Below are positions 12,461 through 64,000 of a stretch of DNA of 64,000 nt, piece after piece. This DNA is from Octopus vulgaris (taxonomy: Eukaryota): NCBI GenBank assembly GCA_951406725.2, contig OX597815.1, forward strand, positions 154,442,001 to 154,506,000. The letters run 5' to 3'. The notes under the pieces are model-generated. The model was not told the origin of the DNA and made no database searches. It saw nothing but the letters and a program-made list of their open reading frames with translations. Position numbers and translations under genes: made by a program. Numbering within the stretch: the stretch's first letter is position 1; every line of letters begins with the position of its first letter.

Positions 12461-12465
<5 letters not shown>

Positions 12466-12744
12466 GGTTTGGAGATGATGTACAGGTATTATATATTAGA
12501 AGAAATGAGTTACTCAGAAATCTGGATGGTTTTACATTTACAGATATTTATAAGTATGTTACATGTTTTTATAAATTATATATCATATATTAGCGCTTTC
12601 GTCCACTCTAGTGGAGTTGTCAACTCCACTAAGCTTTACGAAGGTACTATTATATGATATATGATTTATAAAAACATGTAACATACTAATAAATATCAGT
12701 AAATATAAAACCATCCAGATTTCTTGAGTACCTCATTTCTTCTA
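12461..12744. mobile_element. Short Penelope-like fold-back element (tail 12461-12496; arms about 12497-12592 and 12647-12744) in (TA)n
   Basis: Near-perfect inverted arms, one-sided tail, TA tracts on both sides and a hammerhead motif in the loop. Confidence 0.75.
12591..12623 (-). ncRNA. Hammerhead ribozyme motif (U3-A8 core; stem I 5' strand lost)
   Basis: Minus strand reads UUGACAA-C-UCCAC-UAGA-GUGGA-C-GAAA-GCGC-UA; palindromic stem III AGCGCU. Confidence 0.6.
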
Positions 12745-14440
12745 TATATATATATATATATTGTTCATAAAATTTAAGACGTTCTTTTGTTAGTCCAAGT
12801 GTATATTGACTGTGACAATCCTAGTAACTTCTTCAAATGCAAAACATATCAGAAGAAATGCTTTCTGAACAACAACCATACAGGTTCTTTTATTGTGTAG
12901 GATTGTGTTCAGAAGTTTAATTGCGACTATGTAGCGCCAGGTTCAATACTACTGCGTGGTTTAATTTGGACAAGTGAATTCTCATAAATGCAGGAACAGA
13001 CCAGCGCTTATGAGTGAAATTTGATAGGTAACATGGGAAAACCCATTCGAAGAACCACTCCAAGGGTATTTTATACCCCTAACAAAGGGTATAAAATATG
13101 AACAATGATAAACCTGAAAGGAAGAATGAAAATAAAGTGTGTGTGTTTTGTTAGCAAAAAATAAATTAAAATGACATATGTAAATATAACACTTTCCCCT
13201 CAGCATTCTTCAAACATATTCAAACCGTTATCTTGATTAAGATTTCTATATAACCCCTAACTCTGTTTCGAAGATGGATCTGAATCTTCGACCTGAGGTA
13301 AATTGTTTCCTTTCTCCGAACATTTTCATGGACCTCAAAAGCTGTGACTGGTACTTCCTCTCCTTCTCTAAAGTATTTCAAATTAAAAAGGAAAAAAACT
13401 CTGCCCACATTTGTGTTTAATTTGTGGCAGGTATTGCCTGAAGTGCTTTTTAAATATTTACATCGTAAATATTTAAATATTAGCCATCGTAAAAACTGAA
13501 AGGGGAACATGATGTGGAATCATTTTCCTGCCATTATTGAACGGTCGAAACATAAAGGGATTCGTTGGCCCATTATTAGATTCTATTATTCATTGTTGAT
13601 CATTCTCGTTGGTTGGGTGACTACAAAAATACAACAGAGATGCGCAAGATTGCGTAAAATGGTGGAAAAGTTTCATACAGAAAGTAATAAAAGACGCAAG
13701 CATAGCTCTGTGATTTAAGAAGTTAGCTTCATAATCACATAGGAACTGTATGGAATAATGTCATGTGTGTGTGTGTGTGTGTGCTTGTGTGCTTGTGTGT
13801 GTGAGTGTGTATGTGCGTGTTGAGGTGTATGTGTATGTGTTTTCCTTTGTGTATTAGACTTAAAAAGTTAGTATTGACATCAATTTGTTCCATTAGTCAC
13901 ACGGAACTACTCCATCATAGTGACAGTCCAAAAACTGAAACAACTAATTGAATAAATAGGTAGAGTGTAAATGATGTCCTTTCCCTATGAAATGAACGTT
14001 CTTTAAATCATCTAATTATAAAATCTGTGTCCATAATTTGTTTCGAGATGCCGTTACTTAAGATGCTTTAGTGAGACTATCCTCAACTGTGTGCCAGGCT
14101 CACAATTTTGCAATACATCTTTGTGTTTGAGCTGCAGTCCAGCTGATAGGGAGACCATTCTACGTTAATAGAACCATTCTACGATAGAAAGAAGATTGAG
14201 TTGAAAAATATATCCCAATGTGAGGCAAAGATCGAATCGAATCCATATCGTGTCACATATTAACATAATACACTTTCTCAAGCATTCCAGGAACAACTGT
14301 AAGCGACTACTTATTTACAATAACTTTATTTGCACTCGTTATTATGAAGTAAATATCCTCGAGCACAAATTTTCAGTTCGGATAGATTTCACGCTTTATT
14401 ATACTCCTTCCACTTCGCTGTGTTGCTTTCTGTCTGTCTG

Positions 14441-14472
<32 letters not shown>

Positions 14473-14674
14473 TATTTATTTCTTTCTTTCTTTCTATCTT
14501 TACTTCTCTAGCACTTTGGTTGTTACATTTCTCATTTGTAGAATTCTATACCAAATTCTCATACTTTCATTCAAGATTTCATTGGATGTAACTTTATTTC
14601 GTTTGCTGTATTCTAATGAGCTGCGATCAATATATATATATAGTAAATACATGGTCTGTTGACGAGAATGTGAT

Positions 14675-14717
<43 letters not shown>

Positions 14718-14867
14718 AGAGAGAAAGAAAGAGAGGGAGAGATGTAGCACTTCGAGTCGTGAATGAAGTTTACATCATTCATTTTTACATAGGATGTTTG
14801 AAATACGTTCTGTGGTTTGCATCTTTATGGCTTCTCACTCTGATGCTATTTCATATACTGTATGTAT

Positions 14868-14998
14868 CAGTATTCCGCCGAGCCCGACTTTGCCTCTCAT
14901 TGTTTCGAGGCCGATAAAATATGTACCAGTTGATTAGTGGCGTCGATCTAATCAACTATCCCACTCCCACAGAACTTGATGGCCTTGTAACAAATTTT
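14868..14998 (+). mobile_element. Degenerate SINE fragment (Deu/Nin-like core family)
   Basis: ATTCCGCCGAGCCCGACTTTGCCTCTCAT...GATAAAATATGTACCAGTTG matches 35088-35315. Confidence 0.7.
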
Positions 14999-15567: not shown

Positions 15568-15644
<77 letters not shown>

Positions 15645-15860: not shown

Positions 15861-16954
15861 ATAATTTTACCTATAAAGGTTATTTTAACGTATCGAACTG
15901 TTTGGTAAAATTGTTATTTATTTTTTGATTAATTAATTAATTAATCTAATTGTGAAATTTTACCCTTCTCTTATTAATTTAAAATTATCATTTACTTCAT
16001 GATAGAATACTGCAGTTTTCTGCGGTATTGCTCGTAGCGTACACATGGGTATAGCATTTAAATAGTATATTCACATTCGGCTGTGTAAATTTTGGAAGTG
16101 TTGGTTGGATATCTGTTACATTATGACAGTCGATTGTGTGCATATACAGCTAAAGCACTTTCAAATTTTATAAAAACTGGAAATATTATACTGAAGAGAG
16201 GGGTAAGTAAAATTCAAATTACTTTTATCTCGAAACGCGTATATAATTAATCCTGGTCGTGTTGATCCATATTAATGTTTGTTGTCCTTTTTATAAATGA
16301 TATAAGAGAAGACAAACATATACAATGGAAAAACGTATACAATGGAAAAAATATTGTCTCATGAAAGATCAATTGTATGCAACGTTCTTCCCACTACACC
16401 GAAGGTCAAATGACTCTTCTGTATTTGTAAGAGCAATAATAGACGTTAAACAGCTACAAGGTAAGGCATATCAAGCCACTGGAGTGTGCTTTCATAAAAA
16501 TATGTTTGCAATATGTTTAACATCAAGTGCAAAGTAAAACACCTCACACAGAAGTCGAAGCAAAGGCAGGTAAATATACCGGTTCTTTGGAGAACGCTTA
16601 TTCTCATCACTCAGCACTTAAATGTGGTAATCCAACGTCAAATTAATTACGGGATTGAGACAGTTCAGCAAGTGCTACGCCAGGAAGATTATATCGATGG
16701 AACAGCTAAGCTACTGTGAGAAACTGAAAAACGTACGACTCTAATCCCTGGAGCGAAGACAAGAGAGATTTAATATGACATACGTATTGAAGATCCTAAA
16801 TAGGTTGATTTCAAACTTTGGCACAGAGACGAATTAGACGCCATTGCACTGTTCCAAATGAACTTACCATCCAAGGTACAGAATTCTTTATTTTTGAATG
16901 GGATACTGTTTTCTTTTCTCTTTATGCAAACTGTCAAATTTATGCGTGTGTGTG

Positions 16955-17293: not shown

Positions 17294-17508
17294 CGGGAAG
17301 GTTTACGAAAATAAACAAAAGACGAAGGCAGGTGGTGATCAAACAAACAAATGTATTAGTATGGCGCTCAGGAATAGAAACAGAACAAGTCTTTTACGTT
17401 TCGAGCCTACGCTCTTCGACAGAAAGATACACAGAAAACAATCAAGGAGAGAAACAAGGAGAGAAAAGAAATGCGTGTAGGAGCTTTAACGGTCTATCAA
17501 GTGGCATT
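17292..17508 (-). mobile_element. Penelope-like 3'-end fragment with hammerhead motif (17390-17427) between TA tracts
   Basis: Minus strand reads UCUUU-CUGUCGA-A-GAGC-GUAG-GCUC-GAAA-CG-UA-AAAGA, with a perfect 5-bp stem I and an A6U change in the core. A related motif lies at 34653-34694. Confidence 0.65.
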
Positions 17509-17518
17509 ATATATATAT

Positions 17519-18015
17519 AATTTATAAGTAAGGGCAAAAAAAAAAAAAAATTTCTAATGCCAAAATATGCCGAAAATAGACATAACATCAATAACCATTA
17601 TAATTCGTCACAACAAACACGTATTTCAAGGAAAGCCGACAGAAATTTCTAAAATGTCAGTGTGCTCATGACTTAGTGTTTGCTTCTTCCACGGGTGTAA
17701 GTAGGTATTTCATTTATTTCTGTACCGCATTTATCACTGATAAAGGGAAGGTTCTTATGAACTAACTCTGAAATCGTGTCCGATATGGTAATAACGGGAT
17801 TTTTTTAGAAATTTCTGTCGGCTTTCTTTGAAACACGTTTTTGTTGTGACGAATTATAATGGTTATTGACGTTGTCTATATTCGGCATATTTTGGCATTA
17901 GATTTTTTTTCTTTTGCCCTTACTTATAAATTGTTTATAAATTTAATCTTTAAAGGTATTTTTTTAATATGCTGACCATTCATAGAGTTTTTTTCGAAAT
18001 ATTTTATCCTACATT
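17519..18015 (+). mobile_element. Penelope-like fold-back element (arms 17519-17654 and 17803-17932; tail 17933-18015) with hammerhead motif 17732-17785
   Basis: Inverted arms. The loop contains UAUCA-CUGAUAA-AGGGAAGGUUC-UUAU-GAACUAACUCU-GAAA-UCGUG-UC-CGAUA (GUC site). A same-family inverted copy lies at about 62101-62290. Confidence 0.75.
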
Positions 18016-19329: not shown

Positions 19330-22300
19330 TAATATATATATATATAAACTTAGATAAACTTAGATATGTTTTGACCAAAGATTGGTCCAGGTCATGTCTA
19401 AATTAATAGCACCACCTGATAGGATTATTTGAATCCTGTTTAAGTCAAGATTTGTTTATGGTCCACTCAAGTAGGGAGTTTTTGTTGGGTGAGTTTTATC
19501 CAATTATGGGTGACTTATCTGGTATTCCTTGAAGGAATCTATCCAGACTCCGTTTAAAGTTGATGGGATCCTTTTCCTCTTTGATCTCTTTCGGGACAAT
19601 GTTAAATAGGGCAGGGCCTGTTGAGGAAAATAAATTATGTTGCAGTGTACATGTATACTGTAATCTTTGAATTGAGCAGGGGACTTATGGCCCGTGGTCC
19701 CAGTCTTGGATGACCCTTGAATCTAATGTTCAGGTCGTTTGGGCAAAGTTGGCGGTATATTCTCTACATCGTACAAATGATGTACCGCTCTCGGCGACGC
19801 TGGAGAGCGTAGAGTTTCAAGGCTTTAAGGCGGTCCCAATAATCGAGAGCAGCCATGCCTTCAATTCGTTTAGTGAGTGCCCTCTGGGGTGATTCAATCC
19901 TTGAGATGTTTTGTCTTGTATGGGGAGACCACAGTGGGCAGCAGTATTCGAGGTGTGGCCGTACAAAGGAGGAGAAAAGTGGTATGATGACACCTTGTTC
20001 TCTGGACCGGAAAGTTCTTAAGATCCAGGAACTCATCCTACGAGCTATATCGACCTTATTTTTGATGTGTGTACTCCAACTGAGATCGTCATCAACAATT
20101 ACACCCAGATCTCTGATATTGTTAGAGGCTGTGAGCGGTTCCCCTGAAGGAAGAGTGTATGGCTGTTTTAGTGAGGAATTTCTTCCAAAATGCATCAGCT
20201 CAAATTTTCCCTCATTCAGTTGCATTTTGTTTCTGTCTGCCTATTGACTCACAGCATATAGATCAGACTGAAGTTGAGTTCGGTCTGCTTCTTCATTGAC
20301 GATTTGCTGGAGCTTAGTGTCATCAGCAAATATTTTCACTTTGCAGTAATGTACGACACTGGAAAGGTCGTTTATGTAAATTATAAAGAGTAGCGGGCCC
20401 AAGACAGTCCCCTGGGGGATACCGCTGGTGACTTTTGCTGGGCTTGAGTGGACTCCATCAACTACATGTTGTGTTCTATTCGCCAGGAAATACTTAATCC
20501 AGTGTAGAACTTTTCCACGGATTCCAACATTTGCCAATTTTGAGAGTAAGATATTACGGTCTACCCTGTCGAACTGAAGTCAAGATATATGACGTCAGAG
20601 TTCGAACCTGTTCGCAAGGCTTTGCATATATCTTCAATGTGGCGTAAGAGCTGTGTTAGATAGTCCCTTCCACAGCGAAAGCCATGCTGATTTGCGTTTA
20701 GGAGTTTGTGGATCTCCAGGAAGTCAGCTATCCTTGATCTTAACACTCTTTCAAACACTTTAATGATGTGGGAGGTGAGTGGGATTGGGCTATAGTTAAG
20801 TGCGAGGGATCTGTTTCCCTGTTGACTGACTGGGATAGAAGCTGTTTCGATATATAACCTGCGTCTAACAAATTTCTCCAGAGGTTGGTCAGAAGGACTG
20901 CAAGTTGGTGTCTACATTCCTTCAGGAGACTAGCGGGGAATCTATCAGGGCGTACAGCAGAGTAGTATTTGACCTCATTTATTGCTGCTATGATGTCCGT
21001 GGCAGTGAAGGTTATGTCTGAGATTTTATGTTTGGAATCAACTTCGTTCGCTTCTCTTATGTCAATATCAGTGGGAACACTAAAGACAGAGCAGTATTGT
21101 TTCTGCAGTATTTCTGCCATTTCTTTAGCATCGTGTTGAGGAATGCCGTTATCATCAATCAATGGCCCAATGGATGAGACAGTGGTTCTATGCGTATTTG
21201 CATAAGAATAGAAAACTTTTGGGTTCTGTTTGATGTTTTTGATTACCCACTGTTCCTCCACAGCTCTTTGATTTTCAATAGAGGTTTTCATGTCGGTCTG
21301 CAGATAAAGTTTTTCCAGCTCTAGCCTTTTCATTGTTGTTGAATGTGGATGTTGTATGTGGGAATATCTTAATTGGTTAATTTTTTTATTGAGTCTTTTG
21401 ATGCGCCTGATGAGTGTTTTTTTTTTCTTTTTAGGGAGTTGTACTTCGGAAGGAAGGACTTGACTTTGCTAAGGCACTCTTCAAAGCACTTTAGAGGTGC
21501 TTGGGAAAGCCTGTAAACACCAACAATGATTATGTCCTTGGCCTTGCTGAATAGTGATACAGATTCACAGTAGCCATTGGAAAATATGTCCTTGGCATCA
21601 AGTGAAAAGGAGTCATGGATAAAGATGGCTGTCCCTCCCTTATTTCGGTCTGTGCGATCCGCACGAACAATGGTGAAATGTTTTATTTTCACCTCGGCAT
21701 CCATATGGGTGTTGTTCAGCTGAGTCTCAGTAAGGATAAAGAAAAGGAAGCAATGTGCCGTTTCGGCAAGCCAACTCTGTATATATGGGGTCTTCCATTT
21801 TTGGGCAATAATTGATGGGTTGATGCCACGTACATTTAACAGGAATGTCGAGGTAAGGGAAGTTTGATGTTTGCATTGTTCTAAGTTATGTTTTCTGTTG
21901 TTCAGTGGTAACAATGTGGGTAGTCCTTGTATGGAGCTGTGTGTGTATGATTCTCTTGTTGGTAGTGGGTGTGTGGTCCTTGTGATTTGCATAAATGGTT
22001 GCTGATAGCTCGCTGGATCTCCTGGCTTAGGTCGGCCTTCATATTTTCTAGGTAAGTCAGTAAAAAAGAGTTGCCTCTTTGGTTTGCCACTTGGTCAGAG
22101 GATACATAGTTCATGTTTATGTTATTTGGTGTTATGGTTTTTTCATGGTTCTGTCTTCGTTGTTTGATTGTAGGAGGGGAAACGTGGTTGTATTTTGTTT
22201 ATGTTGTTGTCGTAGATCTCCTCTGTTGCTGTTTATATTTATTTTGCGATCGTTTTGTGCCTTTCAGATGGTGGTGGTTGCATTCTGGGTTCAGGCACAT

Positions 22301-22768
22301 CCTTAGTGACACAGAAGTTTGGCACAGTTTAGGATGGAAGAAGATGCATCCATTGCCTTTTGTGCATCCATATTTGGCATCAGGACCATGGACTCTGTAT
22401 TTAGGATAGTATTTGAGGTGGAGGTGAGGGCAGTTTTTTTCCGTTATACGACATAAGGTAGGATGGAAAAAAGCACAGCGTCCCTTGTTGTTGGTGCCGC
22501 TGGGTCCAAATCTACAGTTGCCTTGAGATGGTAACGACAGGGTGTTTGACGTGGGTGTAGTAGTGGTTTTTCTATTCTGGCAGGCTCGTTGGTCAGTGGT
22601 CCTATTGTAGTAGCAGTAGCAGAGTGTTGTTGTTGTTGTTGTTGTTGCTGTAGCAGCAGTGAAACTTGACTTGCAACAGTAGGGCTGAGTGGAATCGGGT
22701 CAGATACTGGTGCCAAACAAGGTGCTTCCAATGTAGTAGCAGAAGTAGGCCGTTGTTGTTGAAACTAG
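19330..22768 (-). mobile_element. Decayed CR1/L2-group LINE (ORF1 with Cys/His fingers, APE endonuclease, RT), frameshifted and internally deleted
   Basis: Endonuclease motifs LLNVRGI, LTETQL, RADRTDRNKGGTAIFI, IVGVYR. RT motifs NQHGFR, IYLDFS, SGIPQGTVLGPLLFIIYINDL, KIFADDTKL. C-terminal FVRPHLEYCCPLWSP and LQRRRERY. Upstream Cys/His-rich GCTKGNGCIFFHPKLC. Confidence 0.9.
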
Positions 22769-25400: not shown

Positions 25401-25758
25401 TATGTGAAATAGAAAGATGAATAATCTTGTAGTAGATTAATCAAAAGTTTAACCGATACCTTAGTAGCAAAAATCACAGCAGTAAAACAGCACGGTTGGA
25501 GGTACAACCATATGGTGTTGCAACCGTGCGTTGGTGCGGATAATTGAAATTAGAACATTATTGGTGAATTGAAGAAATGGAGCTGAACGCAGATTGAACA
25601 GAAATCGTTTTATTTCATTCTCTGAAGAGAAAGACACAATATGGTCCCATTATTCCATCGGATTTTGGTAATTTGTGCCTTTCGAAACACGTGTAGAATG
25701 AAATAAAACGATTTCTGTTCAATCTGCGTTCAGCTCCATTTCTTCAATTCACCAATAA

Positions 25759-35872: not shown

Positions 35873-35913
35873 ACTTGATAGGTTTCACTTTTTTAGAAAA
35901 GATTATCAAAAGT
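35873..35913 (-). ncRNA. Hammerhead ribozyme motif (U3-A8 core) in a putative Penelope-like 3' end abutting a TA tract
   Basis: Minus strand reads ACUU-UUGAUAA-U-CUUUU-CUAA-AAAAG-U-GAAA-CCUA-UC-AAGU. Confidence 0.6.
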
Positions 35914-36204
35914 AAAATGTAAAGCTTTGTATAAGCTCCGTTTTGTGAAGTACTGGTTATCACAAAAGTATTAAAATACAGTTATACGGTCTTTGATAAT
36001 GACATGAGAATTTTAAAAACAGTTTACATGAAAGTATTCAAGAAAGGGACTACAATAAGTATTTTGAGTTCAATAAAAATCATATTTGTTTTGTAGTATT
36101 TATATAAAAAAGGAGATATATTTAAGAATTTACATAAAATTGGAAAGGATCCACTGACCTGTCTGTCTGACATATTCTGTGTTGTGTACAGCTAAAGAAT
36201 GACA

Positions 36205-38926: not shown

Positions 38927-40715
38927 TATTGTTATATTTCGGAATGGTCATATTGCCAGTTTAGCCAATAAAAACACACGCACTATATATTTGGTGTTAT
39001 TTTGCTTCAGTGATATTTATTATTTACATTAATCTTAATCTTATTTCGGCCAAAGTTCTTTCGTCACACTCCTGTGACCGCATCAGTGGTCCTTTGTTTT
39101 CTTCTCACTTACTTGTGTCTCTCCTTACTAACCGTCAGCCATTTTGTATTTCTATTGTATGTCTTCATTTGCGCATGCTTATATCTCTATGTGCGTCTAT
39201 GTTTATTTAGTGTGTGTGTGTGGGGGGGGATGTCTGTAATATTTGTATCTTCTGGTTATATACATTCTTGTAATTTGTATTTTGTTTTTGTTGTTGTTGC
39301 TTTTGTTCTAATTTTGTTCATGTGTTTACTTCCACCCATTATTATCATTACATATGTTTGTATGTATGTATAACAACAATATTAGTAATAATAATAATAA
39401 ATCTAATCGAGAGAAAAAAAAAAAAAAAAAAAGAATATACATATACATATATATATATATATACATACACATACATATACATATATATATATACATATAT
39501 ACACACATATATACACATATACATATACATATATATACACATATACATACACATAGATATTCATTTCTATTTCTTTAATTACCTGTGTATTTATTATGTT
39601 TGCAGGATCCACTATTGTCATATGTTGTGGTGTGCGCTATTGCTCCATTCTAGTTTTCTATTCAGGCTAGGTTTATTTTCTATTATATGTGTAGCTTCTG
39701 TAATTTGTCTAATTGTTGCATCTGTTCTATGTGTGGACAATATCTTAATCTCTATGTTATTGATTGATCCCCCGTGTTCTTGTTCGGCGTGTTGGTACAG
39801 AATCGATGATTCTGTACCAACACATGAACAAGAACACACGGATCAATCAATAACATAAGGATATTGTCCACACATAGAACAGATGCAACAATTAGACAAA
39901 TTACAGAAGCTACACATATAATAGAAATAAACCTAGCCTGAATAGAAAACTAGAATGAGCAATAGCGCACACCACAACATATGACAATAGTGGATCCTGC
40001 AAACATAATAAATACACAGGTAATTAAAGAAATAGAAATGAATATCTATGTGTATGTATATGTGTATATATATGTATATGTATATGTGTATATATGTGTG
40101 TATATATGTATATATATATATGTATATGTATGTGTATGTATATATATATATATGTATATGTATATTCTTTTTTTTTTTTTTTCTCGATTAGATTTATTAT
40201 TATTATTACTAATATTGTTGTTATACATACATACAAACATATGTAATAATAATAATGGGTGGATGTAAACACATGAACAAAATTAGAACAAAAGCAACAA
40301 CAACAAAAACAAAATACAAATTACAAGAATGTATATAACCAGAAGATACAAATATTACAGACATCCCCCCCACACACACTAAATAAACATAGACGCACAT
40401 AAGATATAAGCATGCGCAAATGAAGACATACAATAGAAATACAAAATGGCTGACGGTAGTAAGGAGACACAAGTAAGTGAGAAGAAAACAAAGGACCACT
40501 GATGCGGTCACAGGAGTGTGACAGAAAGAACTTTGGCCGAAATAAGATTAAGATTAATGTAAATAATAAATATCACTGAAGCAAAATAACACCAAATATA
40601 TAGTGCGTGTGTTTTTATTGGCTAAACTGGCAATATGACCATTCCGAAATATAACAATATCTGTTTCAACACACGACTTCACATAAAAAAATCTTGCACA
40701 ACAAATATTTAAACG
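38927..40715. mobile_element. About 1.75-kb palindromic Penelope-like element (arms 38927-39804 and 39808-40659; tail 40660-40715)
   Basis: 3-nt loop at 39805-39807. The left arm (minus) encodes a GIY-YIG-type C-terminus, [13 protein letters not shown]...[34 protein letters not shown]. Hammerhead motif in both arms (39048-39092 minus; 40493-40538 plus). TA flanks. Confidence 0.8.
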
Positions 40716-42814: not shown

Positions 42815-44950
42815 ATAATAAGTGTAGATCGTATACGAGTGGGTATACGAGTATACGAGTATTTATAAAAAAGAAGTTTGAAAACGCCACTATACAAGAT
42901 AAATTTTAATTTTCTTCGAAATTTTACATGTTTCGGTTCTTCAAACACCCTTCACACCCTAGGAATAGAAGCGATCCCTTTCTGGCTAAACAACTGCTCC
43001 TTTGAACTCCCAACTCGCATAAATAAAGAACTTATAATTGAAGGACTTAGATTTATTTTAGAAAACAATTACTTTATTTTTGATAATAATTTCTACAGAC
43101 AAAGATCGGGAACAGCGATGAGTACGCGTACTGCGCCTTCTTTTGCCAACCTAGTGATGGGATACCTCGAGAAAATACTCTACCAGAAAACACTCGAGAA
43201 ATATGGAAACACTTTCTCCTCCTATTTTCAGAACAACTGGAAAAGATACCTCGACGACTGCTTCATCCTCTGGGATAAAAGTATAGAGCAACTTGAGGAA
43301 TTTAAAATACTATTAACTGGAATAAATGATAATATTCAGTTCACGATAGATCATAACGAAGAAGAATTACCATTTTTAGACATCCTCATTAAGAAAGTCG
43401 GCAACAAAATAGAGACAGATATCTATTATAAACCGACAGAGTCCAAGCAGTACCTACCCTTTGATTCATTCCACCCAAGACACACTAGAATAAATGTCCC
43501 TTTTTGTTTAGCTAGAAGGAGTTGCACCATAATATCAGACACAAACACCCGACACACACGCCTCCAGGAACTTAGAACTACACTCATAAATAGAAATTAT
43601 CCACAGCTCCTAATAGACAGCGCAATCCAACGAGCACTTAAATTAAGTATAGAAAACCTGAGACAAACAAAACCAAAAAAGAAAGAAAAATTAAAAACCC
43701 TTCCCTACATCTCTACACACAACCCACTTAACAATGAGGCCTTCAGCACCATACTACAAAGCACAGCCCTACTAAAGGGAAACCCAAAGATGAACCGGAT
43801 CCTCGAAACACACACTATCATTAAAAGTAAACAGCAACCAAAATCCTTAAAAAAGATTTTAACCCAAGCTAAACTGCACTCAACATCAACCACAAAACCA
43901 GCAGTTAGAAAATGTGGAAAGCCCAACTGCGGAATCTGTGTCATCTTGGTAGAAGGTTCAGAATTCACATTAGAACAAGGCCATCGGTTTATCATCAGAA
44001 CAAACTTCACCTGTGCATCAGAAGACTTAATTTACGCCTTAACATGCGCAAGTTGCAATAGGCAGTATATAGGCCATACAAAAACAGATTACGAAAAAGG
44101 ATGGCGGTGCATAAACCCAAAATTAGAAATCCTGAATACAGGAAAATACCAGTCAGCGGACACATAGATAGATATGCTTCAAATAAAAATCCGAAATTCA
44201 CAACTTGCCCACTTTACAAATTCAGTGACAGCGTAACTTTCACTCAACGCCAAAATAAAGAACTTTATTTCATTAGAAAATTCAGACCAAGTTTGAACAC
44301 CCTGGGACAGGAATATTATAACAATACATTGGTCTTCCGAAAAGAAAAATGGAATTATACCACAACCACCACGATCACTACGACTGCTACCACTATCACT
44401 ACTACTACAACCACCATGGTCACTACTATTAATACTACGATCAACAATCCTCCACTACTGCTGCTGTTGCTACTGCCACAGCTAAGCTGCTGCAACCCCA
44501 ACCACCACCACGGTTACTACTACTACGACCAACAGTCACTGCTGCTACTGCCACAGCTTAGCTGCTACAACCAATGAGCTGCTGCAGCCCCAACCACCAC
44601 CACGGTTACTACTACTACGACCAATAGTCACTGCTGCTACTGCTATTTCAGCCGCGGGTGATTCGAACACATAAGACAGCTAACAAAAACCACGTGGATC
44701 CTGTTGAGACCAGTAAGAAACAATTGGGAACTTTTTTATTACATTCAACTTACATTAAATTTACCGACAAAACACTACATGGATTCTGTTGAGACCAGTA
44801 AGAAACAATTATGAACTTTTTTATTACACTTAACTTTTTAAAAAACTTTTGATAAGGTTCGTTTTTTCAAGGAGAACCGAAACGTAAAATTTCTAAGAAA
44901 ATTAAAATTTATCTTATGTAGTGGCGTTTTCAAATTTCTTTTTTATAAAT
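42815..44950 (+). mobile_element. 5'-truncated Penelope-like element (probably Neptune-type) with RT, Zn finger and GIY-YIG, and an inverted terminal copy at its 5' end
   Basis: 42861-42942 is an inverted copy of about 44872-44950. Hammerhead UUGAUAA-GGUUC...GAACC-GAAA-CG-UA at 44849-44886. TA tracts on both sides. Confidence 0.92.
42943..44300 (+). pseudogene. PLE RT/GIY-YIG ORF, N-truncated, one frameshift near 44085
   Basis: FYRQRSGTAMSTRTAPSFANLVMG, WKRYLDDCF, LPFLDILI, YYKPT, HPRHTRINVP, KCGKPNCGIC, LIYALTCASCNRQYIG; second frame HKPKIRNP...RQNKELYFIRKFRPSLN. Confidence 0.9.
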
Positions 44951-45031: not shown

Positions 45032-45036
<5 letters not shown>

Positions 45037-45253
45037 GCAGCGTGGAAGGTGTTTTTAAGCCATTTAAGAAACAGACAAAAGCCGTTCGATTCACTTCAAT
45101 ATTTAAGTTTAATTTGTCAAAAAATTTTCGTCGCTAAAATCCGCGACCTGTTCACTGACAAAAATCCGTGCTGCAAACACCTTCCATGCTGCAATTGTTT
45201 TCGTTCCAGCACACGATCTTAGATCAAATCACTTGCTATGCGAGTACATCTCC
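45032..45253 (-). mobile_element. Small Penelope-like fold-back (22-bp arms 45032-45053 and 45175-45196; tail to 45253) in (TA)n
   Basis: AATTGCAGCGTGGAAGGTGTTT versus AAACACCTTCCATGCTGCAATT; hammerhead motif inside. Confidence 0.7.
45113..45162 (-). ncRNA. Hammerhead ribozyme motif with G3-C8 swapped core
   Basis: Minus strand reads UUUGUCA-GUGAACA-G-GUCGC-GGAUUUUA-GCGAC-GAAA-AUUUUU-UGACAAA; perfect 7-bp stem I and 5-bp stem II. Confidence 0.7.
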
Positions 45254-46224
45254 ATATATATATATACATACACATACACACACGCACACACAGAGACACA
45301 CACATACAGGCCTATATAACAGCCTACTGATAACGCTGTCTGTGTATATATAAACTGTGATTATTGGTGTCTGACACCTTCTGTGTATATTCCCTATTTA
45401 GTGCTGGGGATGTTTCTTTAATGATACGTACTCTTGTATTTGTCTGAATGTTAGGTCCTTCGGGGGCTTGGATAAAATGCGAATGTCAAGTTGACCAAGC
45501 ATGCCTCCATGTTGGTCTTTGACATATAAATATACACATGTATGTATGTAAGTATGTATGTATTGCTGTATTTCGAGACGGTCATTTTTGTTTTGCCACA
45601 TGAACAAACACATTATTTATTCATTCTTCAGTCGTTCATTACTGTTTTTACTCTAACTCATATCCATTGATTGATTGATTCATTTATTCTAGTTTCAGCT
45701 CACGAGCTGTGGCCATGCTGGGGCACCGCCATTGTCCAGAAATCTTTCGTCACACATCTGTGACCTCCTCAGCGACACTTTCCGTCTTCCTGTATGCTGT
45801 TGCACAGGTTATTCCATTCTGTTCTTCTATGATGTGTATCCTTATATGCGCTTGCGTATGTGTTTGTGTCTGTGTGTGCGTATGTGTGTCATTGTTCTTA
45901 TTAGCACTATGACCCTCCCCTCCGCCTCATCCCGTACCCCTTTCCCGCTGCTGCTGCTGCCGCCCTTGAACTCGCCTTTTTGTACTGTTCTTGTCTGTGT
46001 ATTCGCCCACGCTGCTGATATCATGGTAGTTGTTGTTATTACTGCCATTGTTGCTAGTCATATTGTTGATATTGTTGCAGCCGTCTGTGTGTTTGTGCGT
46101 GCATACGGGTTCTCTTCCTATGTTGTTTGTATCCGTGCCTTTTGTACAGTTTTTTATGCCACTAATTTCTTTATATATTCATCATAGGTATGTGCATACA
46201 TGTGTATTGTATGTGGATTACGTT

Positions 46225-52521: not shown

Positions 52522-53793
52522 CAAGGAAAATTGTAAAAATGCAGAATGCTCGATTGAAAGAAAATGTTAATGAAATGAGGAAATGAAAAAATATATAAAT
52601 ATATATTTATTCAAACCGGTTTTCGTCATAGTTTGACTTATCAAGAATAGTTAGGTGAAAAGGTTTTTAAAAAATGAGAAAGGGGAAAAAAGTTGCATTG
52701 TTTTTTGCAAAAGAATAATAATAAATATGTATAAAAATTAAAAAATAAGTACTCCGATACATTGTGAGTTCGTTGTGTATCTTGAGTTTAATGAATGTTC
52801 ACGAAAAAATTACCTTGAGGTATTAGGATCCAATGGGATTAAGGCCATGTGTTGTTTGGTTTAATTTAGGATGTTGGCAAAACAGGAAGTAGTAGTAATT
52901 GTGGTTCTCCACACAGGAGAGAATTAACAAGGAGAATCTCTTTATTGAAAAATTCCAAACACAACTTAATATACAAACTCCTCGTTGATCAAACTTCCCT
53001 TTTCTACTTCATTCTTCATGGATGGACTCACACAAATATATAAGGATACCATAGATTCATCACTTCAAGCAAAAACTTATATTCTTTAAATATCATTTTT
53101 ACTATTGTTGTTATTACCATCATCTTTATTATTTATGATATAACAATCTGAAATGCAATTGTCTATGCAAATTTATATAATTAGAAAATAATATAAACAA
53201 AGTGTTAAAATCTGAAAGTTAAATTAACAAACAATTACATAAAAAAGATAATGCAAATGAAACTAAAATGACAATTTTATAATTTGGGGTTTTATCAGCA
53301 GCCTTTATTGAAGAACTCAAAAGAGTTGTCTCCCCTTATTCACAACACAGGAACTGAAGAACCACAATTACTACTACTTCCTGTTTTGCCAACATCCTAA
53401 ATTAAACCAAACAACACATGGCCTTAATCCCATTGGATCCTAATACCTCAAGGTAATTTTTTCGTGAACATTCATTAAACTCAAGATACACAACGAACTC
53501 ACAATGTATCGGAGTACTTATTTTTTAATTTTTATACATATTTATTATTATTCTTTTGCAAAAAACAATGCAACTTTTTTTCCCCTTTCTCATTTTTTAA
53601 AAACCTTTTCACCTAACTATTCTTGATAAGTCAAACTATGACGAAAACCGGTTTGAATAAATATATATTTATATATTTTTTCATTTCCTCATTTCATTAA
53701 CATTTTCTTTCAATCGAGCATTCTGCATTTTTACAATTTTTCCTTGCTTATCATTTCTCCACGTGCGGTCAACACAACCCCACCATTTATTGA

Positions 53794-55033: not shown

Positions 55034-56720
55034 CAGTTGCGGCCAAAATGTTCAGAACGGCATTGTTTTCGTCAGAAAAGTAGGTATAAGTTTTTTTAAA
55101 GTTGTTTTATATTCTATAATTTTCACAGACAATAAATACAATATTATTTGTTATTGTCTAAGATTTTGGTGTAATTTGAGAGATAATAAAAGAGTTATGG
55201 ATGATTTAGTGATTTACTGCAAAACCCATGGCGGCCAAAATTATCAGAACGGTTGCTTTTTACTCCGTGTTTTAGTATATTTAACCTTGGAACTCTAATG
55301 TTTTGAATTTGTTTACGTGACAGTTCGTTTACTAAACATTAGTAAGAATATCTGCAGAGTACCTTGTTAATATAATGCCACTTGCCCCGTTACCAATTCT
55401 TCAGCAGATTATTAAGCTTCGAAAGAAGGATAATTTAAGTATCAGATCTATTGCAAAGATTCTTAACAAGTCAAAAAGTGTTGTTCATGGTATTCTTAAG
55501 GTCTACAATGATTGTGGTTCGTGTGAAGCAAGAAAGTCTACAGGTAGGCCAAGAAAAACGACCAAGAGAGAAGATCGTGCTATGTTAAAGTTGGTTAAAA
55601 AGGACAGATTTAAAACTGCTGCTGCTGTTTTTCGGGAGATGAGCTTTGTACTGAAGAAAACTTTATCTCGAAAAACTGTGTCTCGTCGTTTCGTTTAACA
55701 TGACCTACAAGCAAGAGCACCTGCAGTGAAGCCACTGATCAACTCCAAGAATAAAAAGTGTCGTCTTACCTTTGCAACCGAACATGTGTTGTGGTCTCAA
55801 GAAAAATGGCAAATGGTGCATTTCAGTGATGAATCTAAGTCTATGTTATTTGGCTCAGATGGGAAAAGGTACGTTCGTCGAAAAGCAGGTGAAAAATTGT
55901 CACCTAAATGCCTTAAGACTAGTGTTAAATTCGGTGGCGGAGGTGTCATGGTTTGAGGGATGATATCTGGAGATGTTGTGGGTCCTTTGCTGCGATTACA
56001 TGTAAATGTAAATATAGGAGTTTATAAACAACTTGTAAAAGATCATGTCTTGCCTGTGCTGAGAAATTCAACTTAGCGACCACCCATATTCATACAGGAC
56101 AGTGCCCTTTGTCACAAGGCTAAGGTGGTCATGAACTTCCTCAAGGCTGAAAAGGTTATTGTTATGGATTGGCCTGCTCAAAGCCCAGACCTCAATCCTA
56201 TTGAAAATGTGTGGAATATTCTGGGAGAACGTTTGAAAGCCAGAAATCCTAAAACAACCGAGCAATTATGGAATGCCCTTCAGGAAGAATGGAATAAGAT
56301 CACCCAGCAAGAAATTGAAAATTTAATTTCCCCATGCAGTCAAAAATGTCAAACTTTGATTGAAGCTAAAGGGCTTCACACTAAATATTAAATAATTCCA
56401 GCACTCTCTGTCACTTTTTGATTATTTTGTTATTTTTTCAACCGTTCTGATAATTTTGGTTTGATTTTGTGGTGGCCTTTTGCTTAAAATAAGTGATTAG
56501 TCATGTTTTTTTAGTTTTTCACTTTGTTTCATGATTGGCAAATTTCTTTTGTTGATGTTTAAAATGTTTTGGTTATGCGGATTGTGTGCTACTAGAAATG
56601 GTATTGTCTTCTGTTGATTGGTTCGTCTTTCTCATGTTGCCCTAAGTTATTCTATAGGTATCTCTTTTACTCGTTGCATGCTATTTTCTGTAAGTAATAT
56701 CCAAACCTGTTCTGAACGGA
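55034..56720 (+). mobile_element. Tc1-family transposon with IR/DR-type ends, transposase broken by stops
   Basis: Starts TA|CAGTTGCGGCCAAAATGTTCAGAACGG. Inner direct repeat GCGGCCAAAATTATCAGAACGG at about 55230 with its inverse at about 56442. Transposase motifs GRPRKTT, VHFSDESK, VKFGGGGVMV, QDSALCH, WPAQSPDLNPIENVW. Right outer end degraded. Confidence 0.9.
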
Positions 56721-56764: not shown

Positions 56765-57250
56765 AAGATATCTTTAACATATGAAAATAAACAAATTACA
56801 GAAGACTCCCACAAACTGAAATAAAAGCGATCGAAACCAACTAAGTTTGCTCACTCATAAAAACCATTACATGTAAACCTCAAGACAACTGATTAAAATA
56901 AAGGCGGGATCTACGCCAGTAATATCGTTACGCCCGGTATACCGTAACATTTAAGCTGCATGTGGATTGATCAAAACCATATTCCACAAATTCAGCATGT
57001 TAGAGCCTTCTAAGAGGTACAAAAATGAAGAATTCAGTTATTCTACTACAGTTGCCAAGAACTCAATTGTTAGTTTAATACAGTTTGAAATCTGATGATT
57101 ACTACGAACGTATGTAAGATCTAATTGAACTTTATGAACATTACAAAATATTTCTTTAATGTTTAACACACCTCAACATTGTAAAAAAACTATATACGTT
57201 TTCAAAATACCATAATAAAAGACGTGAAAACCAGACCATGTTTTAACTTT
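56765..57250 (+). mobile_element. Solo terminal repeat of the PLE family at 62853-64000
   Basis: Aligns with 63625-64000 (GAAGACTCCCAC, GCTCACTCATAAAA.CCATTACAT, CAAGAACTCAA); decayed hammerhead CUGAUGA at 57092-57098. Confidence 0.8.
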
Positions 57251-58439: not shown

Positions 58440-60980
58440 CCCTTTCTCCCATTATGTCCTTATTTGGGCGGTTTCTGCTTCACTGACTTCTTTTGCGACT
58501 TCTTTTAGCCACTACAGCCAATCTCTTCTTCCAGCAACGTAGTTTTCTGAAACGAATAGATGTGTGATCAACATCTTCTCCTCATATATCAGGAAATTAC
58601 ATCTGCTTTATTATGGATGGTGAGCTAAATAATGAATTTTCTCGGTTTCTTCTTTTAGGATTTCTTCAATAATTTCTTCGCGAATTTGATTTTCAAAGAA
58701 TTTATCATAATCCTTGGATAATTTTTGATCTGCTGTTAGTCCTTGAGAAAGCTGTTTCAAACGACTGGTAGCCAATACTCGACTAGTAGGTAGTCTCGGG
58801 TGGGGATGTTTCCGGGAAAATTGAACTTGATATCTACATTTATTTCCACTGAAACGAATAGTTTAATTGAATTGATCAATGGCACAATCGTTATCAGATA
58901 GTTCCGGCTTGTCCATGATGTCCAACGTTTCCAGCTTCCACAAGTTCTACAACTCGATGTTAAAATTGTCCTCGCTATTTGAGCATTTCCTTTCTGTAAT
59001 TCTGTTTCCAAAAAGGTGTTGCAAGGATCTTGTCTGTTGAAATCACTCTAGCGGCAGCTTCCTAATGCAGTGCCAAAAATGGTTGGGAAAACAATCACTT
59101 TTGAGGTTGTAGATATCAACTTCTTGACTTGTTTTTCTTCTAAAATGTCAACAAGATAGTCAGCTACAATCAACACTTCTGGCACATCTGTCCTTGCCGA
59201 TGACAGACTAATCTGTCATCGTAACTCTCTTTTATCTTCTGTAAGAATGACGGGTCTGTCCAGAACACTCGCATTGAGAGTAAGGTTCCGGCCATTCTTA
59301 GCGTGTAGATAGATATTGGTACCGGTGGCACTGTGATCTTTTTTCTGTAAGAGAATGTTTACCTCTAGATAACCAACGCTCTTTGATGAGAGTTGAAATT
59401 GTTTTCTCAGTCTTTCGGTAATAAAACTCTTTGGACTAATGGCACCCGGTATTGCTTGTGTGAGTAATTTTCTCGTCATGCCATTTGGATTACTTGTTAT
59501 TACCGGCACGGTTGTTATATGTAGGCAATTAGAATCCGTATTCATTTTCAACGACACCACTGACCTTATCGGTTCCTTTCGGCTGTCTTTGGGGTTCAGT
59601 TCTGTTAATGATTCATCTTGTTGAATCGGGAAGGCAGTGGTTTTAGGTCAACGTTTTCTGCAGCGAGCTTTGTGTTTCTCTTTGAAATGCCAGCACACTT
59701 TTGGCATTCTTTCGCATAGTGTTGACTCGAAAGACATTTGAAACACAATACCTTCTCCCGAATAAGTCGCATACGGTCTTTGTATGTCCTGTAATTTTTA
59801 CATTCATCATTAAAATGTGTATGTTTGCAAAAGACGCACGGTGGTTTTGGGTTTCAAGGTGAACCGCTGGTTGATTATTTTGATTTTTGAAACAGCCTGT
59901 CATTCTTTTAGCCTTGTGTGTTAAAGTTATCTATTGAGCCTTTCCAGTTATCCTTTTTCCGTCTTGACGTTCCTTCGTAATTTTGAGAAGCAGTCGGAAC
60001 AAATTCGGAGATTGGAAGATCGTCCACAGTTGTGCCATCTGGCTTTACCTGTCCAACTTCAAGAACATAATTGGCTGGATACTTTTCAAGCACGATCATA
60101 TTCTAATCTGAGAGTAAAATGTCCATGCCGAGTGTTTGCAATTGTCTCAAAATCTTATTTTATCTGTTAATTGCTTTCCTGAGCAGTTCAGGATTTTTGT
60201 CGGTCGCTTGGATGTTTGTCAACTGCCTATGCAATTCGCGTTTAATAGTTGCATCTTGCCCGTAGCGTTCTTTCAAAAGTTCAATTGCGAGCTCCTAGGT
60301 TTTGTCCGTTATACTCAAACCGCCGATCGTTTATTTTGCTTCGCTCTTGATTAAACCATACAAATAACTGAACTTCAGAAATCGTGAACTGCTGATTTGA
60401 AAAGTGCCAAAAATGTTGGCCATTTGAGTTAGTCGCCTTTGAAAGTCGGTAGTCGTATGTCTGGTAGTCTTATAGGAGCCGCAGGAATTTTCATCGCTGC
60501 ATCTTGAACCAGACCTTATTGTCTTCGATTAGCGTAATCATTCGAACTTGGCATCTGTCTTGAGATGATTTTCCCAGATAAACTTCGAGTTAGTCGAGTT
60601 AGTAGGACAAGGGCATCGAGATGAATCTTTGTGTACCCATAGTCGCCTTCGAAAAATTCGGTTAGCTGCCTTTCTTCTTCAGCTGTTCTGTCCACTTCAC
60701 CTTTCTGTTCGAATTTCTCGACAACTTCTTCCAATTTTTCTTGTTGTTTCTCTATAAGTTCTATTGTCCTTTGGATATTTAGTATAAATTGCTTAATAGC
60801 TTGACGAACACAATCTTGTTTCTCAGTTGCAGAGATGATGGGTATTGGGGTGGTTATATGTTTTTGGAGTCGGAGAATAGCTGCTTTGATCAATCTTCTT
60901 ACGTTGACCGAGGAGGCCATTCTTGGATTTTATGAGGCCAACAGCATTCGGCCACCTCTATCTCCTTCGCCACCATCGTC
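58440..60980 (-). mobile_element. Decayed BEL/Pao LTR retrotransposon (gag to start of pol)
   Basis: Coiled-coil gag start (60516-60920), DUF1759-like IRLPDIRLPTFKGD*LKWPTFLALFKSAVH...KFSYLYGLIKSEA, Cys/His knuckles CVFCKHTHFNDEC and CFKCLSSQHYAKEC, and a HYLAHHP-like motif near 58610. LTRs not identified. Confidence 0.8.
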
Positions 60981-61966
60981 CTAACGTCAACATCTCTACG
61001 TAGACAACTCAACAAGCAACTCCCCAAGTTCCAACACTTCACTGTTAGTTAATTACTTCACTATGGATGAACAGCGAATATACAACCTGCGAGAACTCCT
61101 GTACCAATTAACCCAGGCAGCAGCATCACAGCCAGATCTTCACGTACGACATATACTGCAACCGGGTCAGCATCATGGCTGCAACTTCTTGATACAGTAT
61201 TTCAATTACCGTAAACAATTGACAACGAATTGGTATTCTCATTCTTGAGTCTATGAACATTCTTCTAACTTTTCATCATGGACACTTTCAATGACCTTTC
61301 CTTCATTGCTATTCTTATACGTAATTAACTCACACACACATATCCATGCCTACACATACATTCACGTTGTTCTCATGACGGCCTTTCTATTATTTTGTGT
61401 ACATGACGCACACACAGGCACACATGTTAACATATTAAATAAATCTTCTCTTAAACATTCTACTCGTCTCTCTTTTTCCCTCTAGCACATATATATATCA
61501 TTCATCTTATAATCATTGTAAGAGCTGTGTGATGTACGAAAGAGCAATTCTTGTCACCTTACATCGCACAGTCTCTTACAACGCAAGATATGCATTCTCT
61601 CTTCACTATTTTTATATAATACTTTAATTTTAAAGTAGGTGCTCCTTTTGAGTTACGTAACATAAAGGTACCTATTATTTTATTGTTTATATTAAACGTA
61701 CTTTACATATTTGTTTAGTTAAAAATAACACATGATGTCTGTAGCTTTCTTCTTTATTTCTAACACCTTCCATCTTGTAAAATTCTAGTGTATATTCTAT
61801 TCCAATTCGTAAATCATAGTTTCTGACAATCCTTTGCAGGTGAAAAGTGAATATGAAAATCTGCCATACACACGCGCACACGCACACACTGACTCACACA
61901 GACATACATGTGATGATTAATTCTTCAATTTAATTCTAAATTGTTCTATATATAGAAACAAGCATT

Positions 61967-62031
<65 letters not shown>

Positions 62032-62100
62032 TTATATATGTATATATGCATATATGTATATGTATGTATATATGTATATATATATATATATATATATTTC

Positions 62101-62290
62101 AAATGTGACGATAAAATTCTTTTCGAAAAAAAATATTTTCTCGAAGAAAATTTTATCAATGACCAGCATATTAAAAAGTACCTTTAACGGTTAAATTTAT
62201 GAACAATTCATAAATGAGGGCAAAGGAAAAAATTTCTAATGCCAAATATGCCGAAAATTTGGACATATTGTCCAGTAACCATATAATTAA
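62101..62290 (-). mobile_element. Terminal fragment of the 17519-18015 PLE-like family
   Basis: Reverse complement of the tail plus arm: CAGCATATTAAAAAGTACCTTTAA...AGGGCAAAGGAAAAAATTTCTAATGCCAAATATGCCGAAAAT. Confidence 0.75.
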
Positions 62291-62309
62291 ACATAGTAAA
62301 TAGGGTAAT

Positions 62310-62800
62310 AAAAGTAAATTATTATTACCAGTGACCTAGCACAAAAGATGAATTAGTCATTAGACTATACGTTATTAATATATAAATACATTAAAAGGTT
62401 TCCAAATAAAGAAGCGAGTGCTAGATACACAAAAAGGGGATAAATTCATGAAATGGAATGAAAATCAAAAACGTTTACCAACTCAGCTAATCCTGTACTG
62501 CAGTTTCATCTTTTCTTTTGCAAATGAATAGAATTTATCTGCCAAGGCCAGAATCATCAGCAAGAAGCCTTTGTAATCCGAGCTGTAGAAGCGCGTGCAA
62601 ATCTAACGATCTGTATATCCTAAGTTTTCAGACCAGTGCGCAGACGCAAAACATTCTATTCATTTGCTAAAAAAAAGATGAAACTGCAGTACAGGATTAG
62701 CTGAGTTGGTAAACATTTTTGATTTTCATTCCATTTCATGAATTTATCCCCTTTTTGTGTACCTAGCACTCGCTTCTTTATTTGGAAGAATTTTAATGTA
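62310..62800. mobile_element. Fold-back element (arms 62387-62534 and 62653-62800) ending in (TA)n, probably Penelope-like
   Basis: About 148-bp near-perfect inverted arms; minus-strand CUGAUGA at 62554-62560 followed by a hairpin and UAAA instead of GAAA. Confidence 0.6.
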
Positions 62801-62852
62801 TATATATATATATATATATATTCAGAATTTGTATAAATGTGCATCAGCTGAA

Positions 62853-64000
62853 TAAAGTTAAAATATGGTCTCGTTATCACGTTTTTTATTATTGTATTTT
62901 TAAAAGATTTTTTACAATGTTTAAGTATGCTAAACATTAAAAAAATATTTTTTTAATGTTCATAACGTTGAATTAGAGCTTTCATACGTTCATAGCAATC
63001 ATCAGATTTCAAAATCTATTTTAACTGACAGTTGAGTTCTTGACCACTTTAGTAAAATGACGGACGCCTTCATTTTTGTACGTCTTAGAAGGCTCCAACA
63101 AGCTGAATTTTTCGAGAAAGACTTGGACCAATCAGCATGCAGTTTAAACGTATCGGTTTGCAATGTGTACCGATATTACTAGCATAGATCCCGCCTGTAT
63201 TTTAGCCAATTAGCGGTTTACATGTAAATGGTTTTATGAGTGAGCAAACTTAGTTGGTCTCGATCGTTTTTATTGCAAGTGGTGGGAGTCTGCTGTAATT
63301 TGTTTATATTCCTATATTAAAGATATTTCTTAATCCACATGATTAACCGGTTGTTATTTTATTATTGTTATTTTCGTTCAGAACAGATTTGAATATTTTA
63401 ATAAAACGCTTTTCTTTTATCATTCTTCCAAACTCACTTGTGTAAAGTACCTTGTGGAAAGGAAAAATTGGAAATATTTTCTGACCACATGCTTCACTCA
63501 GTGGAATTCGGCGAACATCATTTTCCCAGATTCTTTGTCTGTGAACTTCTGAGCATTCTGATAATACATTCACTATCTCGCCAATATGTAGTTCTTCGCA
63601 ATTAGGGCATTTCGGGCATTTGAATATATTACATATGAATATAAACAAGTTACGAGTTACAGAAGACTCCCACCTATTCAAATAAAAACAATCGAACGAA
63701 GTTCGCTCACTCATAAAACCATTACATATAAGCCGCAAACTAGTTGGTTAAAATAAAGACGGAATATATGTCAGTAATACCGGTGCGCCTGGTAAACCGT
63801 GACGTTTAAGCTGCAGGCTGATTGTGCAAATCTGTATTCGAAAAATTCATCCTGTTGGGGCCCTCTAAAAGGTAAAAAATGAAGAAGTCAGCCATTTTAC
63901 TACAGTTGTCAAGAACTCAACTGTCAGTTGAATATATTTTGAAACCTGAAGATGACTACGAACGTATGAAAGCTCTAATGGAAGTTTATAAACATTACAA
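62853..64000 (-). mobile_element. Older 5'-truncated Penelope-like element with inverted terminal repeat, running off the window
   Basis: Central minus-strand CPNCEELHIGE...VHRQRIW...IPLSE...IFPFHKV...RMIKEKRFIKIFKSVLN (GIY-YIG C-terminal half). Diverged inverted arms about 62853-63330 and 63625-64000. Hammerhead-like cores at 62968-63012 (minus) and 63946-63975 (plus). Confidence 0.82.

Follow-up and report, generated by a model that had tools for sequence, protein, structure and literature searches.

Hammerhead motifs with three forms of the 3-8 pair among Penelope-like elements and short repeats of Octopus vulgaris

It is not settled what hammerhead ribozymes do for Penelope-like elements (PLEs): in vitro their cutting is poor, and for the one element that has been reconstituted cleavage is dispensable for insertion. 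The question is raised again by a stretch of 64,000 nt from Octopus vulgaris (assembly GCA_951406725.2, contig OX597815.1, positions 154,442,001 to 154,506,000 of the forward strand), referred to here, at its full length, as the window. Between positions 12461 and 64000 it holds 14 insertions, in about 11 families, that carry minimal hammerhead motifs of type I (stem I-core-stem II-GAAA-stem III-UH-stem I), with core nucleotides 3 and 8 occurring as C-G, as U-A and, in a single family, as G-C. The probable explanation, argued here from sequence comparison, is that these are 3'-end hammerheads of PLEs and their passengers, whose master copies would be selected for the catalytic fold; cutting would be slow, would take place mainly in dimers and would perhaps be helped by protein, while the genomic copies decay.

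The window has 35% GC and is rich in TA and CA microsatellites; the genome comprises 2.8 Gb in 227 contigs. The insertions were identified with a library of 445 motifs from sampled loci and by direct comparisons, an inverted pair counting as one, and lie at 12623, 16191, 17422, 17737, 25622, 34663, 35909, 39086/40499, 42964/44849, 45155, 45772, 52644/53623, 57092 and 63006/63946. Most copies are decayed, and stems I and II with a palindromic stem III are intact only at 16191, 17422, 52644 and 53623. The original prediction, made from the letters of the sequence, had named seven cores, all of which are in place, and had spoken of about 12 distinct inserts; 14 are counted here. It had also called the flanks unrelated, which goes too far: 57092, 63006 and 63946 belong to a single family, 45155 has relatives in 39086/40499 and 45772, and the reverse transcriptases (RTs) of the 44849 and 53623 families are ~54% identical. 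The 12623 core as an artefact of local inversion was rejected, its family carrying UUGAMAA, and a motif at 23231 (-) was not counted as it belongs to an abundant repeat whose relatives are without the core.

Enrichment, pairing and family structure

Descriptors that left out an optional unpaired base between positions 9 and 10.1 overlooked most of the motifs, and the descriptor was revised to allow this base, as described for Penelope hammerheads in PMC4209133. Checked against shuffled DNA, as the original prediction had proposed, the strict descriptor gives three matches in the window against a mean of 0.07 and a maximum of three in 200 local shuffles; the maximum with a paired 3-8 is one. 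A sample of 120 evenly spaced 10-kb stretches (1.2 Mb), searched with positions 3, 6, 7 and 8 free, gave 33 matches against 0-3 per shuffle (mean 0.95, 20 shuffles). Nucleotides 3 and 8 form a Watson-Crick pair in 30 of the 33 (23 C-G, 5 U-A, 2 G-C and no A-U) and in 4 of the 19 matches from the shuffles (Fisher p 5e-7, a value affected by the non-independence of the sample matches, seven of which lie in a single tandem array). When the first 100 stretches were scanned more strictly, 14 of 14 matches were paired, against 2 of 5 in 10 shuffles, and none of the clusters with at least two members in the sample has a mismatched 3-8 majority. The three Watson-Crick states that had been predicted are present, far above shuffles.

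About half of the motifs in this genome escape searches with CUGANGA and the Rfam models, as had been foreseen for the former. CUGANGA is matched by 18 of the 30 paired sample matches, or 11 of 21 loci and families, and so misses 10 of those 21, together with 6-7 of the 14 window inserts. No hammerhead is among the 150 Rfam matches listed, of 259, for the window, and three targeted scans with the Rfam hammerhead models found none at E up to 10 for 45155, 53623 and 17422.

Family alignments were built by searching the genome from seven window sites, each of which gave 527-1,725 first-look candidates; 40 were scored and the best 25-30 loci aligned per family. A Watson-Crick 3-8 pair is the majority state in all seven families, and U4, G5, A6, A9, G12, A13, A14, A15.1 and U16.1 are kept in six, the exception being 17422 (U6), as also its C4 sister. 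The majority lines uphold the predicted minimal type I hammerheads with a palindromic stem III (ATAT, ACCGGT, CATG, CG, CCGG and, in two families, GCGC); in the sister family of 45155, represented by 45772 and 39086, stem III is GATT or GAAC and the palindrome is imperfect. The predicted helices are complete in four families, which have 10.1-11.1 paired and a stem I of at least 3 bp: 53623 and 44849 (both U3-A8), 45155 (G3-C8, with a 7-bp stem I, a bulged G, a 5-bp stem II and palindromic ATAT) and 17422 (C3-G8, U6 throughout). Elsewhere they fall short, stem II being closed by U.U in the 35909 (U3-A8) and 63006 (C3-G8) families, and the weakest family, 12623 (U3-A8), having C.C at 10.1-11.1 and a 2-bp stem I.

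Chance look-alikes are to be expected in AT-rich, repeat-rich DNA, and many window copies do fail the strict descriptor, just as Rfam is silent on the three motifs scanned and in the window matches listed. Chance does not give 33 matches where shuffles average 0.95, nor a 3-8 pairing that emerges unasked, nor family majority lines that repair the helices, nor a fixed position behind PLE open reading frames (ORFs). It is ruled out for the tested families, and its overall probability is close to nil. Three candidates, at 11675 (-), 51356 (+) and 62560 (-), have no relatives over the motif among the sampled loci and were not counted; the last, at 62505-62565 and adjoining an inverted repeat (62373-62814), is possibly a further C3-G8 hammerhead with a palindromic stem III.

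Much of this agrees with what has been published, which limits the surprise. The minimal hammerheads of metazoan PLEs are of type I, with a tiny palindromic stem III, the optional base 9/10.1 and thousands of heterogeneous dispersed copies, and resemble those of the window in topology, opposite-strand pairs, PLE flanking repeats and U3-A8, of which ~1,300 matches are known from Schistosoma mansoni (PMC4209133). They differ in that the available alignment from that source has CUGA and UUGA cores only, with no G3-C8, no cephalopod and no family-wide U6 or C4. Other natural variants include U3-A8 covariation, the U10.1-U11.1 mismatch, A6C and viroid U4C (PMC3088659); G3-C8 and A6U are not named in the available part of that source, whose tested core variants came from phage and bacterial contexts. 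Small dimeric variants associated with PLEs (Lunse, Weinberg and Breaker 2017, PMC5785218, as cited in PMC6765202) likewise have a short palindromic stem III and cleave as dimers, and that work may already list G3-C8. A natural G3-C8 hammerhead was not found in the literature searched, a provisional statement as Lunse 2017 is unchecked, and neither was an octopus hammerhead survey. Further context is given by PMC13725137, PMC6155905, PMC6765202, PMC7151607 and PMC7229834.

Penelope-like elements and a short G3-C8 element

The broken window ORF at 42929-44330 carries, at its 5' break, an inverted copy of its own 3' end. Its Penelope-like identity comes from its homologs, 50 full-length proteins of 722-936 aa that mostly carry RVT_1 and in many cases GIY-YIG; Pfam recognised neither RT nor GIY-YIG in the broken ORFs of the window, and a PDB sequence search was empty. 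The Cys-rich linker between RT and endonuclease, CxxxxCxxC, which might point to the Neptune/Nematis clade, has the pattern described in PMC8557442; the protein tree contained no named reference elements. Hammerheads sit 320-670 nt behind RT/GIY-YIG ORFs in three families. Upstream, on the strand of the hammerhead, a match to the C-terminal part of a PLE protein was found for the 53623 family (15 of 30 loci), the 44849 family (10 of 30) and the 63006 family (9 of 25), and at single loci for the 12623 (1 of 30) and 35909 (1 of 25) families. In the protein tree the 44849, 53623 and 35909 families form one clade (support 98/99) apart from 63006, the 35909 fragment being short and uncertainly linked. 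As a single RT clade unites the U3-A8 families that have an ORF link, there were fewer 3-8 swaps than families, and U3-A8 may have been inherited rather than have arisen repeatedly among the three. Elsewhere in the window a weak Penelope-like protein match (E 4e-7) lies at 56344-56694 (-).

The G3-C8 hammerhead of the window sits, unlike the minimal hammerheads of PMC4209133, in an element of ~205 nt whose hard 5' end precedes the core by ~25 nt and whose 3' end is fixed. The element has inverted 5' arms that lack the last ~55 nt (a one-sided tail), TA-rich microsatellite targets and target duplications, the latter seen by eye at L040, L051, L335, L349 and L353. In 29 loci selected by the tail there are 22 non-tail arms, 19 of which end 58-66 nt before the reference end. 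Inverted arms, tails and target duplications are hallmarks of Penelope insertion (PMC8557442), so that the element is likely a non-autonomous PLE derivative. Its autonomous partner was not found in the searched loci. At L287:7235-7307 (-), ~900 nt behind a PLE ORF, a tail-like stretch resembles the 3' end of the element (E 0.01); no hammerhead lies between the two, and the site is a possible lead to that partner. The ends of the element are complementary over 6 nt (5' GAGATG, 3' CATCTC), for example at L352:1373-1580, which could close the RNA or favour template switching.

Retrozymes of the non-LTR (long terminal repeat) kind are likewise non-autonomous, hammerhead-bearing, proposed PLE derivatives (PMC7229834; bioRxiv 10.64898/2026.07.22.740005), but they form head-to-tail tandem arrays, whereas the window elements are single or inverted insertions. 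No such array occurs in the window. One was met at L356:2307-4513 (G000:C1 near 20.00 Mb), with ~360-nt units that each carry a type I hammerhead, five on one strand and two on the other, with C3-G8, and L238:8667-9029 (G000:C6 near 50.01 Mb) has two ~360-nt units with U3-A8. Related repeats occur at L370, L143, L063 and L071, and among them C-G and U-A alternate separately from the families of the window (L356, L063 and L071 versus L238, L370 and L143).

By an exact pattern the genome holds 8,027 G3 matches and 273 with another base, both arms of inverted pairs being counted. Among the matches listed, C8 accompanies G3 in 97 of 100, and 3 of 100 non-G3 matches are C3-G8 and belong to the family of 45772 and 39086/40499. 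That family, here called the sister family, has 856 pattern matches, of which, among those listed, 82 of 100 are C3-G8 and none G3-C8. (A loose genome-wide G3-C8 pattern, with 38,553 overlapping matches against 21,407 for a control, is uninformative as a count.) The two have in common stem I, the bulged G, stem II and the 3' tail, and alignment to the G3-C8 element gives z values of 3.6-6.9 in five of five sister copies against -1.6 to 0.9 in five of five unrelated families. As a profile of the G3-C8 model matches the sister family weakly (E 0.09-7), and it was the shared motif that led to the sister copies, homology is likely, not proven. Given this homology, G3-C8 looks like a true double swap; an old copy, L258, combines the G3-C8 core with the start of the sister's stem II. 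Variants at a frequency of at least 10% in 141 G3-C8 arms occupy 4 of 8 loop II columns and 0 of 42 stem and core columns, a conservation biased by the choice of 60 loci for likeness to the window copy or for a core pattern. A natural G3-C8 family with a homologous C3-G8 sister is comparative evidence of selection on the catalytic pair in a mobile lineage.

The same families might simply carry inherited founder baggage, the non-autonomous ones having been amplified without selection on the ribozyme and G3-C8 having been fixed once in an ancestor or by chance. There is a single G3-C8 family, the ORF-linked U3-A8 families share their one RT clade, copies within a family are not independent, and the spread of Naiad PLEs reportedly involves no canonical hammerhead (PMC8557442). 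Yet differences among G3-C8 subfamilies fall in loop II and the flanks and not in the stems or core, two chance transversions at paired positions are unlikely, no multi-member cluster of the sample has a mismatched 3-8 majority, and the alternation of C-G and U-A among retrozyme-like repeats is a separate one. Inheritance without selection is therefore judged quite improbable.

Cleavage and what the pair is kept for

If the catalytic fold is what selection retains, the short elements would likely borrow the enzymes of Penelope-like retrotransposons and insert by target-primed reverse transcription into TA-rich sites. Two RNAs would pair their palindromic stems III to build the active sites, perhaps helped by the element's protein, and cleavage would be slow or regulated, given that uncleaved RNA served as template for most inserted copies. 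Purifying selection would act on the master copies while genomic copies decay neutrally, and G3-C8 would have come about in one lineage by a compensated double transversion, C3-G8 being retained in its sisters. Modelled dimers are far more stable than monomers with stem III formed, at -27.2 against -7.9 kcal/mol per monomer for the G3-C8 family and -16.5 against +1.9 for the 53623 family.

Several results weigh against this scheme, besides the weak profile matches, the shared-motif sampling and the biased choice of loci already given. The G3-C8 dimer is no better than two free monomers (-27.2 against -29.4), and in the 10 largest descriptor clusters, which have a palindromic stem III by construction, the modelled hammerhead dimer is the minimum-energy co-fold in one. 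G3-C8 copies are single or inverted and offer no same-strand pair for a dimer in cis, so the partner would have to come in trans. Among 30 G3-C8 arms picked by the tail alone, 22 extend upstream of the predicted cut site, 20 have the whole hammerhead and two end at most 6 nt from the site; in a random sample six of seven arms extend upstream, and the 5' ends of copies do not pile up there. The templates were thus mostly uncleaved. A PLE ORF was found upstream at 0 of 25 loci of the 17422 family and 0 of 60 of the G3-C8 family, and the original attribution of the motifs to many Penelope-like families, borne out by an ORF link for three, does not extend to these two by that route. The 17422 clade, lastly, has spread with U6 or C4 cores.

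This clade is very abundant, with 41 matches in the 1.2 Mb and ~100,000 genome-wide by extrapolation. Of the sampled copies 36 keep C3-G8, 17 have U6, 11 have C4 and 8 are canonical CUGANGA; N7 varies freely while C3-G8, the stems and GAAA are kept. Like the G3-C8 family it consists of short, hard-ended repeats, and the inverted-arm pattern was not seen at 25 anchors in 25 loci of the 17422 family. A link to Penelope is suggested by architecture alone. Selection for cleavage in each family, as first predicted, was an overstatement: the three pair states stand, but G3-C8 is confined to one family, the U3-A8 families have ancestry in common, a very abundant clade has U4C or A6U, and most G3-C8 copies come from uncleaved RNA. 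In a single arm, at L263 near 4150 (+), the sequence is interrupted internally and picks up again precisely at the predicted cut site, as would happen had reverse transcription jumped from the end of a cleaved RNA.

The nearest experimental parallel is PAc, a Poseidon element of the anole with a protein-dependent hammerhead. Its unprocessed RNA is the main template, the tail is one-sided, cleavage is dispensable for insertion in vitro, and the engineered change C3G/G8C partly restores cleavage (PMC11167929). G3-C8 is a laboratory mutant in PAc, as it is in PMC3884650, and the PAc hammerhead overlaps the start of the ORF, whereas in the window G3-C8 is the natural majority of its family and lies in a non-coding element.

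The hammerhead fold could also be retained as a signal by which the Penelope protein binds or assembles, with cleavage incidental, at least in the short non-autonomous families. The 3-8 pair, however, is formed when the RNA is in its catalytic conformation, selection on catalysis predicts a compensated swap at just these positions, and a protein that reads the core would hardly be indifferent among C-G, U-A and G-C. Single mutants at 3 or 8 abolish cleavage (PMC11167929). What a signal would explain is the mostly uncleaved G3-C8 templates and the U6/C4 clade, which keeps its stems, GAAA and, in the 36 of 41 copies, C3-G8; catalytic mutants of PAc left in vitro insertion unaffected and no RNA reads began at the cut site (PMC11167929), and with A6C the rate in Mg2+ drops by orders of magnitude (PMC7151607). 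On balance a signal without a need for cutting is unlikely, and selection for the catalytic fold in master copies, with slow cutting in dimers, is the reading retained here.

A bolder proposal, which we hold to be possible though doubtful, is that these families form a natural mutagenesis series, in which a compensated G3-C8 swap from a C3-G8 ancestor would have spread to thousands of copies that need the catalytic fold yet retrotranspose uncut, alongside a second clade with U6 or C4. If it is true, the ribozyme would be no simple end-maker but a slow, protein-gated switch, and a direct test of the need for cleavage in Penelope elements would be at hand in these families. The G3-C8 and C3-G8 families give ready-made pairs for mismatch-and-rescue assays.

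Features of the window

Table 1. Hammerhead motifs and Penelope-like fragments in the window (window positions)
Feature	Position	Strand	Remarks
Hammerhead-like motif (12623-12587) in inverted-arm insertion	12461..12743	-	Core 12623-12617 UUGACAA, U3-A8; palindromic stem III; C.C at 10.1-11.1; 2-bp stem I, its 5' strand replaced by the inversion junction
Intact hammerhead, C3-G8 (CUGAAGA)	16185..16247	+	6-bp stem I, long stem II; three relatives among sampled loci
Minimal hammerhead, C3-G8 with U6 (CUGUCGA, core 17422)	17390..17427	-	U6 family-wide; ~230-nt repeat without ORF link
Decayed copy (CUGAUAA)	17731..17791	+	Relatives C3-G8
C3-G8 core CUGAAGA at 25622	25622..25700	+	Long stem II, palindromic stem III; upstream stem I swapped out for inverted copy of downstream sequence
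Decayed member of the 17422 clade, core CCGACAA	34658..34695	+	Nearest relatives have C4
U3-A8 hammerhead (UUGAUAA, 35909)	35873..35916	-	U10.1.U11.1; stem III palindrome decayed here, CCGG in the family
C3-G8 hammerhead, A9C in copy 39086	39048..39092	-	Inverted arm of 40499 insertion; family related to G3-C8 family
Tail-bearing arm of 39086/40499 insertion	40493..40715	+	C3-G8 core at 40499; 3' tail resembles that of the G3-C8 element
Inverted fragment, 3' end of Penelope-like element	42867..42946	-	3' half of its hammerhead
Penelope-like ORF, 5'-truncated and frameshifted	42929..44330	+	C-terminal part of RT, Cys linker, GIY-YIG endonuclease
U3-A8 hammerhead UUGAUAA (core 44849)	44845..44890	+	~540 nt 3' of ORF; stem I mismatch and shortened palindrome here
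Inverted arm of ~205-nt G3-C8 element	45036..45175	-	Hammerhead 45162-45113, core GUGAACA 45155-45149; cut predicted between 45120 and 45119; stem III altered at one place in window copy
3' arm and tail of the 45155 G3-C8 element	45177..45255	+	
C3-G8 hammerhead CUGAGGA (45772)	45734..45777	-	Sister family of G3-C8; split by another repeat
Intact U3-A8 hammerhead, inverted arm (52644)	52608..52649	-	
Intact U3-A8 hammerhead UUGAUAA (53623), tail-bearing arm	53618..53659	+	Family ~640 nt 3' of PLE ORFs
Decayed C3-G8 copy of 63006 family	57089..57130	+	GAAA lost
C3-G8 hammerhead CUGAUGA (63006)	62972..63009	-	U10.1.U11.1, short stems; downstream of endonuclease fragment
Penelope-like GIY-YIG endonuclease fragment	63376..63630	-	E 8e-13 to P0011
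Inverted arm of 63006/63946 insertion	63943..63985	+	CUGAAGA, decayed

Other repeats accompany these features. At 19764-22699 (-) there are broken ORFs with endonuclease-like and RT-like motifs, which we take to be LINE-like (long interspersed nuclear element), and at 59216-60929 (-) fragments that resemble an LTR retrotransposon; neither has a Pfam match. A Tc1-like transposase fragment with weak helix-turn-helix matches lies at 55336-55698 (+). Near the start of the window, at 4226-4594 (-), an exon of a G protein-coupled receptor of the rhodopsin family (7tm_1, E 5e-14) was found, and the repeat-rich region may lie upstream of or within its gene.

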